DNA from: a virus
Lineage: Duplodnaviria > Heunggongvirae > Uroviricota > Caudoviricetes
Length of the DNA stretch: 64,000 nucleotides
Direction: 5' to 3' (one strand)
IMG/VR virus record: IMGVR_UViG_2531839666_000014
A program made the position numbers. Shown here piece by piece: positions 1 through 3,000 of the stretch (its first letter is position 1; each line of letters begins with the position of its first letter).

Positions 1-3000
1 ATTACGAACACATCGATGATGAACGCCACGTAAGCGAAGCCCTGCCAGGTGCTCACATACGTGAAGTCAGCCACCCACAGCTGGTCGGGGCGTTCTGCCA
101 CGAACTGGCGGTTCACCCGGTCACCCGCAGCGGCTTCTTTCCGGCTGACTGTGGTGCGGACCTTTTTACCCCGGCGCACACCGGCAAGCCCCATCACCTT
201 CATCAGCCGTTCTACTGTGCACCTGGCCACGGTCACCCCCTCACGCAACAACTGGCGCCAGACCTTGCGCACACCGTACACGCTGTGGTTTTCATCGTAC
301 ACGCGCTGTATCTCCGGCTTCAGCAGGTCATCACGCTGTGCCCGCTGACTGCGTTTATCCGGATGCCGTTGATGCGCACGATGCCGGTAATACGTTGACG
401 GGGCGACAGCCAGCTCGTGGCATACCGGTCCGACCCCGTGCGCACCACGCAGGGTATCCACCAGAGGCGCTATTTTTTCCACAGGCGGTCGAACTCCGCC
501 TTCGCAAAATACGCGGAAGCCTGGCGCAGGATATCGTTGCTGCGGCGCAGTTCGCGGTTTTCACGCTCCAGTTCCTTCAGACGCTGACGTTCAGTGGTGC
601 TCAGTCCGCCGTCACCTGCACCGGCATCGCGCTCATACTGACGCAGCCAGGTACGCAGGGTCTCAGGCGTACAGCCGATTTTAGGGGCGATGGAGCTGAT
701 GGCCGCCCACTGCGAGTCATAGTCATTCTGGCTTTCGATAACCATACGAACGGCCCGCTGACGGACCTCAGGGGAAAAGCGCGTATTTTTAGTCATCCTG
801 TTTACCTCTCTCTCAAGGAGTTTAGTCTCCAGGATTCCCGGGGCGATTCATATCGACCATGAGTTGGCAGTAGCTGGGCAAATTATTCCTGCTACAGATG
901 AGATCACAATGAAATATCCAATCTCGGAGGCGTTTTTTCGCGATATGTTCATCAATCATCCCTTCATCCCGTTTGGGCATGAAGAGTTTTTCATCAAGGG
1001 TATGGTTTGCGGTTTCAATGGAGATTTTATGACGGCATGCCACGTGTTGATTCCCCAGCTCGAAAATAGTCTGAGATATGTGGCTAAAATTAAAGGTGAG
1101 GAACCATCGCAGCTTCACGGGGACGGTTCGCAAGAGCGAAATGGACTCAAGGGATTACTAGATAATCCACTGATTATTGAAGCTTTCGGCGTAGACATAA
1201 TTGGCAATCTTCAGGCCTTACTGGTAGATAAAATCTATGGTGATTTACGAAATCAACTAGCTCACGGATATGTGCCTGCCGGTTACTACAATCAACCTCC
1301 CTGCATTTTTGCATGGTGGCTTGTATTGCACATTCTAATGAACCCTACGGCGAGATACTGGCAAGCCACTTATGGCCAAGAGAGTGAGGCTCAGACTTAA
1401 AGTGAATAAGTTTACGAAGTTGGCACTTCCGGATGCATGTCCATATGAGTTGAGGCGATTTGGTTAATAAGGTTGAGTGCTGCTGAAATTATTCGATGTC
1501 CGCTTTTGGCACAAAGCGGACAACCACGCCAGATCTACCCTGTGCCATGAAAAATGAGAATGTCAATTCACTCCTGAACTAATGCTTTTTAATCTAGTAA
1601 CGTCTAAAATACCTAACATTATCCCTGATAAAATGCCAGTATGCGCTGCATAACTTCACTCATCCGGCACTCGCGACAGATTATGTTTAGGCGACTGTCG
1701 TAGCGACGTATTTCTCCATCAGGTAACGACCAGATAACGTCCGGATCAACCACAGCTGTTTTCTTCACCTTTGCCCTCGAGAGTTTTTTGCGGGCGTTTT
1801 GCCAGTCCTTACGCGCCTGTTCAGACGGGAATAACCCGTAGCCGGAGTTGTATACATCGCCACTGGCTACCAGCTCTCTGGCAAGAACGCTCATCAGATA
1901 TCTAGTCGCACCTGTTTTAGCTTCCAGTTGCCGTAACGTCTCACGACCGCTCTGGCGCACGAGTTCCACCACCTGCCCTTTAATTTTTTCCCGCTCTTCT
2001 TGTGTAAAAACTTTTGCCACAAGTCCCCCTTAAAATTACCTCATGACCTGAAATCAAAACTTATCCTCTGAAACCAGGCGGAATTTCTGTATCCGGTTCA
2101 GAAATATGATTAACACAACGCTGTACAGGTGAACGCCCCAGGCGGATGACCAGTTCGTCCCATTTTTCGCGGAGCTTTGACGGGCTCATGATGTTTTTTA
2201 CCCAGAATGGATCCCGCTGTACCCGACCAAACATTTCACAAATTTGTCTGTGGCTTCTGCCATCCAGCATCCGCATTGTGCGCACATCATTGGCCCAGAC
2301 AGTCCAGTTAGGCTCTTTTGGTCGCATGATCTCGCCATCATCACTGGCGGCCTGTTCGTAGAGACCCACGATCCGCCCCCATATCCACTGCGCACACGCC
2401 AGATCCTCCTGGCTACCCCACTGGCGTTTTTTCGCACTAAACACAACTGCGCCAGGGTGCCGGATTAAAAAATCCTGTTCAGCCGTCTGCGGGTCCGGTT
2501 GCGAAGCTTCCGGACGAAAAGTGTTTTTATTCTCTGTAGTAATCTCTGTTGTATTCTCTGTAGGATCATCGGGCCATTTTGACCCGATGACATTGGGTCG
2601 TTTTGAACCAATGGAGCGTTTCATTTTGACCTCTTCCATCGTGTCATTTTGACCTGATGGAGCGGCGCATTTTGAACCGATGGATTCGCTCAATTTGCCA
2701 TCATCTAAAAGCTCGCTCCCATAGTTAATCGTGTAGAAATTGGTCATATCGCGCTTTGATTTATTGAGCTTTTCACAACGCAAAAGCCCCAGCGTTTTCA
2801 GACTTGCAAACGCGCGCTTTAACGTTGACTCTGACCAGAATGGGAACTGTTCCAACCATTGTTCCGTTGTGTTGTAAATCCAGCGAACACCATCACATTC
2901 CATGCCGGAATTGGTATCTCTCAACCAGTAATGCAACTGCTGCAACACAATGGCTTCATTTAAGCCAATCTTCATCGCAAGCTGTGTGTTTATAACCAGT

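Follow-up and report, generated by a model that had tools for sequence, protein, structure and literature searches.

A prophage DUF7380-DUF4209 gene, predicted to encode a HEPN-type protein, that was probably split by an IS3-family insertion sequence

Introduction

HEPN domains are all-alpha domains of approximately 100-150 residues, with a four-helix core that often carries an insert between helices. Their signatures are an Rx4-6H motif, a polar residue (N, D, or H) after the arginine, and an upstream acidic residue that usually lies in an E-x3-[KR] motif (Anantharaman et al., 2013; PMC3710099). Using HHpred-type searches, the same study placed DUF4209 in the superfamily as the C6orf70 (now ERMARD) HEPN family, predicted it to be catalytically active, and described bacterial members that are fused to TPR and encoded in operons related to restriction-modification (R-M). 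Here, we describe a 64,000-nucleotide stretch of DNA (the window) from the IMG/VR virus record IMGVR_UViG_2531839666_000014, which begins within an IS3-family insertion sequence (IS) that abuts what is very probably the 3′ remnant of a DUF7380-DUF4209 gene.

Several described systems are relevant to this gene. The PADLOC defense candidate (PDC) systems are 145 candidates proposed by guilt-by-embedding in known defense systems, none of which has been tested. For HEC-08, a validated system that contains a HEPN domain, mutating the histidine of the Rx4-6H motif abolishes defense. The gpA-gpQ locus of P2-like phages is a hotspot for anti-phage systems, and DUF4238 is a validated single-gene defense family (Rousset et al., 2022).

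Results

The open reading frame beside the IS matches the 3′ end of a 595-aa prophage gene

A first-pass annotation of the window had described an open reading frame (ORF) at 864-1400 that begins 14 bp past the IS end and whose original 5′ end might have been displaced by the insertion. Using window 851-1600 as a Megablast query against 5426 complete E. coli genomes, we obtained 144 genomes that cover at least 80% of the query; the intact alleles are 100% identical to it. The gene is full length in approximately 140 of the 5426 genomes. As found in strain 190 (A9X72_RS12210) and ATCC 25922 (DR76_RS17050), it is 1788 bp long and encodes 595 aa, and codons 414-595, the last 182, correspond to window 852-1397. 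RefSeq labels the matching region a DUF4209 or DUF7380 domain-containing protein. We consider it very probable that window 852-1400 represents the last third of an accessory locus that consists of one gene in a Qin-like cryptic prophage, that an IS3-family insertion in codon 414 split this gene, and that the intact protein combines a DUF7380 domain, a TPR-like region, and a HEPN-type DUF4209 domain (Table 1).

The intact locus lies in a Qin-like cryptic prophage, with hokD, rem, ydfU, and ydfT on one side and genes for DUF977, replication, YdaT, DicC/Cro, repressor, and dicB on the other. The gene is divergent from hokD, convergent with the DUF977 gene, and stands alone. Promoter and terminator scans upstream of the intact gene gave nothing above shuffle expectation. 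Its G+C content in E. coli, approximately 45%, is below the value typical of this species, as is usual for accessory genes.

We found the exact IS-gene junction of the window in only four of the complete genomes, and in all four the 5′ 414 codons of the gene lie directly beyond a 1310-bp IS. In one of these, E. coli JNEC-KY202, the intact sequence ...gcgtatcgacc... has become ...gcgtat-IS-tatcgacc..., with TAT duplicated within codon 414. The 5′ part is called in this strain as a 426-aa ORF, consisting of 414 native and 12 IS-encoded residues; taken together, both halves show 99.9% identity to the intact gene. Because of the 3-bp duplication, the adjoining 5′ part, and the near identity of the halves to the intact gene, the event is, on this comparison, a recent simple transposition without further decay. 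The proposed displacement of the 5′ end was thus borne out. Strain FHI_NMBU_11 also carries the IS allele.

For the strain from which the window comes, a simple insertion is suggested by analogy with the junction-sharing genomes. This leaves room for doubt, since the window starts inside the IS and the left flank lies outside it. The junction could instead mark a rearrangement or deletion in that strain, with the 5′ part of the gene lost. Such an allele occurs in GCA_900448095.1, where a different IS3-family element of approximately 1.25 kb lies at gene nt 1233, 6 bp upstream of the insertion site in the window, and nt ~106-1232 are deleted (L015:1688-2936); moreover, beyond ~10.7 kb the window matches no single inspected genome identically. 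However, wherever an inspected copy of the junction includes far-side sequence (in JNEC-KY202, in CP045712, and in a third assembly), the 426-aa N-terminal ORF lies directly beyond the IS, and in JNEC-KY202 the whole-gene query is matched over 100% of its length by two segments. We therefore regard loss of the 5′ part as highly improbable. After a simple insertion, the sequence to the left of the window would complete the IS with a further 460 bp and then continue with ...atgacgagaatgcgtat and the first 1241 nt of the gene.

Table 1. Coordinates of the IS, the gene remnant, and their features in the window
Feature	Position	Strand	Basis or remark
orfA-proximal 850 bp of a 1310-bp IS3-family element	1-850	-	Complete copy in E. 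coli JNEC-KY202
IS orfB, 5′ part (DDE/rve transposase), running off the window start	1-482	-	orfB is L003:4984-5883 (minus) in JNEC-KY202
ALIL pseudoknot, stimulator of programmed -1 frameshifting between orfA and orfB	399-515	-	Rfam RF01497, 95.3 bits, E 2e-24
IS orfA, 108 aa	470-796	-	Pfam HTH_Tnp_1, E 2.7e-13
Terminal inverted repeat at the orfA-proximal IS end, TGAATCGCCCCGG	838-850	-	Top strand ends ...CCGGGGCGATTCA
Right-hand copy of the 3-bp target-site duplication, TAT	851-853	+	Intact versus split allele
Probable 3′ remnant of a 595-aa DUF7380/TPR-like/DUF4209 gene (PADLOC PDC-S39): codons 414-595 and stop	852-1400	+	Identity to intact alleles, PDC-S39 HMM, Pfam
163-aa ORF called by RefSeq, WP_000876897.1	909-1400	+	Start is an internal Met of the intact protein
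E-N-S-L-R, upstream E-x3-[KR] HEPN motif (E, 1062-1064; R, 1074-1076)	1062-1076	+	E484 and R488 invariant
R-N-Q-L-A-H, Rx4H HEPN motif with polar residue after R (R, 1248-1250; H, 1263-1265)	1248-1265	+	R546 and H551 invariant

The element at the window start belongs to the IS3 family

Assignment of window 1-850 to the IS3 family, as first proposed, is confirmed by the HTH_Tnp_1 domain of orfA, the ALIL pseudoknot, and the terminal repeat at 838-850. The window begins within orfB, and the truncation of the IS at position 1 is an artifact of the window edge. The complete copy in JNEC-KY202 (L003:4942-6251; window positions equal L003 coordinates minus 5401) is 1310 bp long with TG...CA ends, starting with TGAACCGCCCCGG and ending with CCGGGGCGATTCA. 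Its fused 404-aa transposase contains HTH_Tnp_1, HTH_21, rve, rve_3, and rve_2 domains. At its 3′ end, orfA reads ...tgg aaa aaa tag, an A-rich slippery run. The pseudoknot scored well above the Rfam cut-off for RF01497 (50 bits), and RefSeq annotates the same ALIL feature, together with a "programmed frameshift," in the JNEC-KY202 copy.

Window 837-850 is cccggggcgattca, the reverse complement of TGAATCGCCCCGGG, and the relaxed terminal pattern TGAAYCGCCCCGG, with one mismatch allowed, occurs once in the 64-kb window, at 838-850. The orfA/orfB arrangement with a -1 frameshift, the rve transposase, the imperfect TG...CA repeats, and the 3-bp duplication all characterize the IS3 family, in which target duplications are 3-4 bp. 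Judging by its length, termini, and orfA, the element may be IS629/IS1203-like. Most E. coli matches to a query spanning the IS end were only 80%-90% identical, indicating that the element is a rarer relative of a common IS.

The ORF at 864-1400 encodes 178 aa from a TTG start. Its frame remains open for approximately 90 nt into the IS, up to a stop, and the IS-derived part contains no ATG, GTG, or TTG. In the IS3 family, the outward-facing -35 element lies at the end opposite the orfA-upstream end. As the end that abuts the remnant is the orfA-upstream end, with transposase transcription directed away from the remnant, we rejected IS-driven expression of the remnant. A promoter scan of the plus strand of window 600-1700 found no sigma-70-like site.

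A 103-aa antisense ORF on the minus strand (822-1133) runs across the IS end into the beginning of the remnant and contains a promoter-like minus-strand site at 909-882; both the ORF and the site most likely arose by chance.

Homologs of the remnant are proteins of about 600 aa

As an alternative, the first-pass annotation had suggested that the ORF encodes a short intact protein starting at ATG 909. A word-indexed search with the intact protein recovered 69 homologs, nearly all of which are 570-660 aa long and contain both DUF7380 and DUF4209. An exhaustive HMMER scan with the 178-aa fragment matched 2922 representative clusters at E ≤ 1e-3. Among the best 150 of these 2922 representatives, approximately 127 are at least 300 aa (most ~550-650 aa) and match at their C terminus, while approximately 23 are shorter than 300 aa. 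For one short homolog, P0165, the gene has been divided into two overlapping ORFs, of which P0165 is the 3′ half; another, P0070, starts in the middle of the conserved THIDHEG block. The 163-aa ORF is recorded on 15 contigs, each time next to an IS or at a contig end.

We weighed these lengths against the possibility that the ORF is a genuine short protein, of 163 aa from ATG 909 or 178 aa from TTG 864, acting as a free-standing HEPN toxin or RNase. RefSeq annotates the 163-aa ORF as a coding sequence, the fragment keeps both catalytic motifs and is predicted to fold alone into a compact structure (AF2 model; pLDDT 90.6, pTM 0.85), and there are the short proteins among the best 150 representatives. 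However, close homologs are all ~595 aa, with ATG 909 an internal methionine, and the one short homolog examined in this respect is half of a split gene. In addition, the plus strand upstream lacks a promoter-like site, only a weak GAG precedes ATG 909, and the orientation of the abutting IS end sends transposase transcription the other way. A short functional protein would be a very improbable product of this locus. We likewise rejected a short stand-alone family, since homologs that lack the IS are ~600 aa and the short ones checked are half of a split gene, start within a conserved block, or lie beside an IS or at a contig end.

The intact protein has three predicted parts and matches PDC-S39

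In the intact protein, Pfam detects DUF7380 at residues 4-166 (E 3e-34) and DUF4209 (E 3e-8); on the fragment, DUF4209 covers residues 66-156 (E 4.9e-9). For the middle region, the only hits of a family HMM searched against PDB sequences were to kinesin light chain TPR, at residues ~146-287 (E 3e-4). The full-length AF2 model is confident and almost all-helical (pLDDT 90.5), and Foldseek against the PDB matched it only to TPR proteins (E ~3e-3), a result that is uninformative for the C-terminal domain. By these matches, the protein begins with DUF7380, continues as a TPR-like helical solenoid, and ends with DUF4209.

The intact protein is the PADLOC defense candidate PDC-S39 and is, therefore, already catalogued. 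Both PDC-S39 HMMs match the intact allele nearly end to end (residues 43-581; E 3e-102 and 2e-101), while the fragment in the window matches model positions 422-584 of 595 (E 1e-48). Full-length PDC-S39 membership thus holds for the intact allele and not for the window ORF, which is, by these profile matches, a fragment of a DUF7380-DUF4209 protein rather than a complete member. PHROGs matched two families of unknown function.

Motif conservation and the published assignment support a HEPN-type domain

The first-pass annotation had recognized LRNQLAHGY as a HEPN-like string at 1248-1268. The motif is present and these coordinates are nearly exact: the full string spans 1245-1271, and the narrower interval covers RNQLAHG. 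An Rx4-6H string has roughly an even chance of appearing in 178 residues, as estimated from typical R and H frequencies. To gauge its conservation, we aligned 39 homologs with identities down to 23%. Invariance is limited to seven columns of the 595-aa protein: G384, Q482, E484, R488, R546, H551, and G552. Since both the arginine and the histidine are invariant across such divergent homologs, the motif is more than a chance occurrence. All of the invariant residues except G384 fall in or beside two motifs, P-Q-x-E-N-S-x-R and R-N-x3-H-G, a concentration that argues for a catalytic site. Within E484-N-S-L-R488, at least 90% of homologs retain the N and the S, and the residue after R546 is N in most of the 39 and H or D in the rest. 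The two motifs correspond to the E-x3-[KR] and Rx4-6H signatures of HEPN RNases.

Apart from one small beta-hairpin insert, the AF2 model of the fragment consists almost entirely of helices. A long helix carries the E-x3-R motif, and a later helix starts with R-N-x3-H.

Our own fold and profile searches gave no significant link to solved HEPN proteins. Foldseek found no match for the fragment model in the PDB at E ≤ 0.001 (best E 2), and the only geometrically plausible match was 2q00 (TM 0.53 by target, rmsd 5.3 Å, E 5, probability 0.23). An HMM profile of the C-terminal domain matched DUF4209 alone in Pfam and gave chance-level hits in the PDB. The structure 2q00 is a PaREP1-type HEPN-T protein (PMC3710099). 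The second-ranked Foldseek match, also non-significant, was the nucleotidyltransferase ANT(6)-Ib. In these model comparisons, the 2q00 and ANT(6) matches are suggestive of a HEPN-type fold but do not count as evidence for it. A Foldseek search of the BFVD viral structures gave nothing significant, and we found no solved structure or demonstrated activity for the DUF4209 family in the sources searched. The HEPN relationship proposed by the first-pass annotation is thus supported by the motifs and by the published assignment, not by independent fold evidence.

The genomic contexts fit a mobile defense gene

We examined the surroundings of distant homologs. Two DUF4209 homologs of ~23% identity, with the motifs PQMEGMVRY and LRHKLAHG, lie in the gpA-gpQ locus, in Escherichia phage vB_EcoM-569R9 (L012:3041-4972) and as ORF612 of P2-EC46 (L013:220-2058). 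In the literature searched, we found no report of a DUF4209 gene tested at the P2 hotspot. An Enterobacter homolog lies between the Q antiterminator and holin genes of a lambdoid prophage. In a 7-Mb genome, the stop codon of a distant homolog of 587 aa overlaps the start codon of a DUF4238 gene (7761-7764 of L010:6001-8927); the pair, which has ISL3 and IS21 transposase genes around it, may form a two-gene unit or small defense island. On a metagenomic contig (L014:429-6597), two paralogous DUF7380-DUF4209 genes less than 3 kb apart flank a type I R-M HsdS (Methylase_S) gene; one of these paralogs is split into overlapping ORFs of 439 and 198 aa. In Vibrio cholerae, the homolog is alone among housekeeping genes. 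No neighbor was conserved across the Vibrio, Enterobacter, P2-like, and other contexts inspected. The phage, prophage, DUF4238, and R-M contexts fit a mobile defense gene. In the intact E. coli loci, the gene stands alone, lacking the adjacent co-transcribed antitoxin of a type II toxin-antitoxin system.

We lean slightly toward the view that the intact protein acts against phages as an RNase of the sensor-effector type. DUF7380 and the TPR-like region would keep the HEPN domain in check until they bind a phage cue or product; HEPN domains would then pair to form a metal-independent RNase site, RNA would be cut, and the infection would be aborted. The original label of "toxin or abortive-infection gene" is likewise a prediction. 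It speaks against this view that the literature searched yielded no experimental work on RNase activity or defense for any member; DUF4209 is mentioned there in a single paper, DUF7380 and PF24098 in none, and PDC-S39 in genome surveys only.

A different reading of the same split gene is that DUF4209, instead of being an RNase or defense effector, is a helical domain that serves binding or regulation in a prophage accessory protein with another role. The lack of significant structural or profile matches to solved HEPN proteins, the unknown function of the PHROGs families, the candidate status of PDC-S39 within a set that has had no defense test, and the solitary V. cholerae gene are all compatible with this reading. 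Against it, the residues conserved family-wide lie only in or beside the two HEPN motifs, favoring catalysis over scaffolding, published profile-profile analysis assigns DUF4209 to the HEPN superfamily, and the family recurs in defense hotspots and R-M neighborhoods. We therefore consider a binding or regulatory role of this kind unlikely, and continue to prefer an RNase effector.

The allele in the window is very probably null

The first-pass annotation had also inferred that a HEPN-type gene was inactivated by the insertion. The remnant retains a complete DUF4209 domain, for which the literature provides the HEPN assignment, and supports this proposal. Because the effector domain has been cut from its promoter, start codon, and presumed sensor, the facing IS end transcribes away from it, and no promoter-like site precedes ATG 909, the allele would, with high probability, be null. 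Transcription of the remnant by read-through or from a cryptic promoter may nonetheless occur, which would count against this conclusion.

Other alleles are also disrupted. The IS in GCA_900448095.1, which inserted at the equivalent of window ~845-851, leaves an identical 163-aa ORF; its termini begin TGAAGTGG..., and we presume it to be IS911-like. In E. coli FDAARGOS_1290 (L021:4820-6270), an IS4 lies at gene nt ~1317. Further independent disruptions include an allele broken at nt ~1440, and in four genomes only a 5′ part remains (such as nt 1-576 or nt 1-88); disrupted alleles were also drawn from NZ_CP025842.1, NZ_CP195143.1, and NZ_LR898868.1. In total, approximately 10 of 152 carriers are visibly disrupted, a level of disruption that is ordinary decay of a cryptic-prophage accessory gene.

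Nucleotides 1233-1440 of the 1788-nt gene contain at least four independent breaks, of which three are confirmed IS insertions. These three span no more than 85 bp (nt 1233-1317) shortly before the HEPN domain, in what is a small sample. This clustering could reflect selection at the sensor-effector boundary of a costly defense gene, as opposed to chance or a target hotspot. The split might also be other than a plain null: a HEPN fragment without its DUF7380/TPR part, made at low levels by read-through or from a cryptic promoter, could cut RNA free of regulation or cooperate in trans with the 426-aa N-terminal product. We give this scenario little credence and favor a null allele.

Neighboring features of the window

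The replication-region ORF beside the DUF977 gene (window 2061-3080, minus strand) encodes 339 aa here and in one other assembly, and 321 or 325 aa elsewhere, which may be due to start-codon choice or a small indel. This ORF has no significant Pfam domain. Beyond ~10.7 kb, the identity between the window and JNEC-KY202 falls from 99.95% to 94%-99%, with alignment gaps, indicating that the window derives from a different strain, with mosaic prophage and island DNA in this part. The corresponding stretch of JNEC-KY202 contains a second IS3-family element, Hok/Gef genes, a YadA-like gene, and an 8.4-kb LPD5-domain gene.

Discussion

The locus at the start of this window is an ordinary IS-generated pseudogene of a candidate anti-phage gene and is already known, since RefSeq annotates both the IS3-family transposase and the DUF4209-domain protein, the domain was assigned to HEPN in 2013, and PADLOC includes the family. 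Although the locus itself is of little import, the wider family is worth more. Approximately 2900 representative clusters match a 600-aa protein with DUF7380, TPR-like, and HEPN parts; the family is found in hotspots of P2 and lambdoid prophages and beside restriction-modification genes, and it is present in catalogs only as a candidate. The DUF4209 domain is shared with human ERMARD, whose biochemical activity is, to our knowledge, unproven. As E. coli ATCC 25922, a standard laboratory strain, carries an intact allele, the predicted RNase and defense functions are readily testable.

Comparison with known systems places the two parts of the locus as follows. The IS shares with the IS629/IS1203 type its length of 1310 bp, orfA and orfB, -1 frameshift, ALIL pseudoknot, TG...CA ends, and 3-bp duplication. 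The intact gene shares with the C6orf70/ERMARD HEPN family (PF13910, DUF4209/EMARD_N) a Pfam match, the R-N-x3-H and E-x3-R motifs, a TPR-like fusion, and R-M neighbors, whereas eukaryotic members are proteins of the endoplasmic reticulum membrane with a transmembrane segment and the prophage protein is soluble with an N-terminal DUF7380 domain. Like the validated system HEC-08, which joins a DUF3644 HEPN domain to zinc fingers, it combines HEPN and a non-catalytic partner in one polypeptide. However, HEC-08 belongs to another HEPN family, has its HEPN domain at the N terminus, and carries other partner domains; we detected no sequence similarity to it, and the PADLOC matches were to PDC-S39 only. 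The closest counterpart is this single-gene candidate, in which DUF7380 is joined to DUF4209: the intact allele matches it end to end, while the window keeps only the last 182 of 595 codons.

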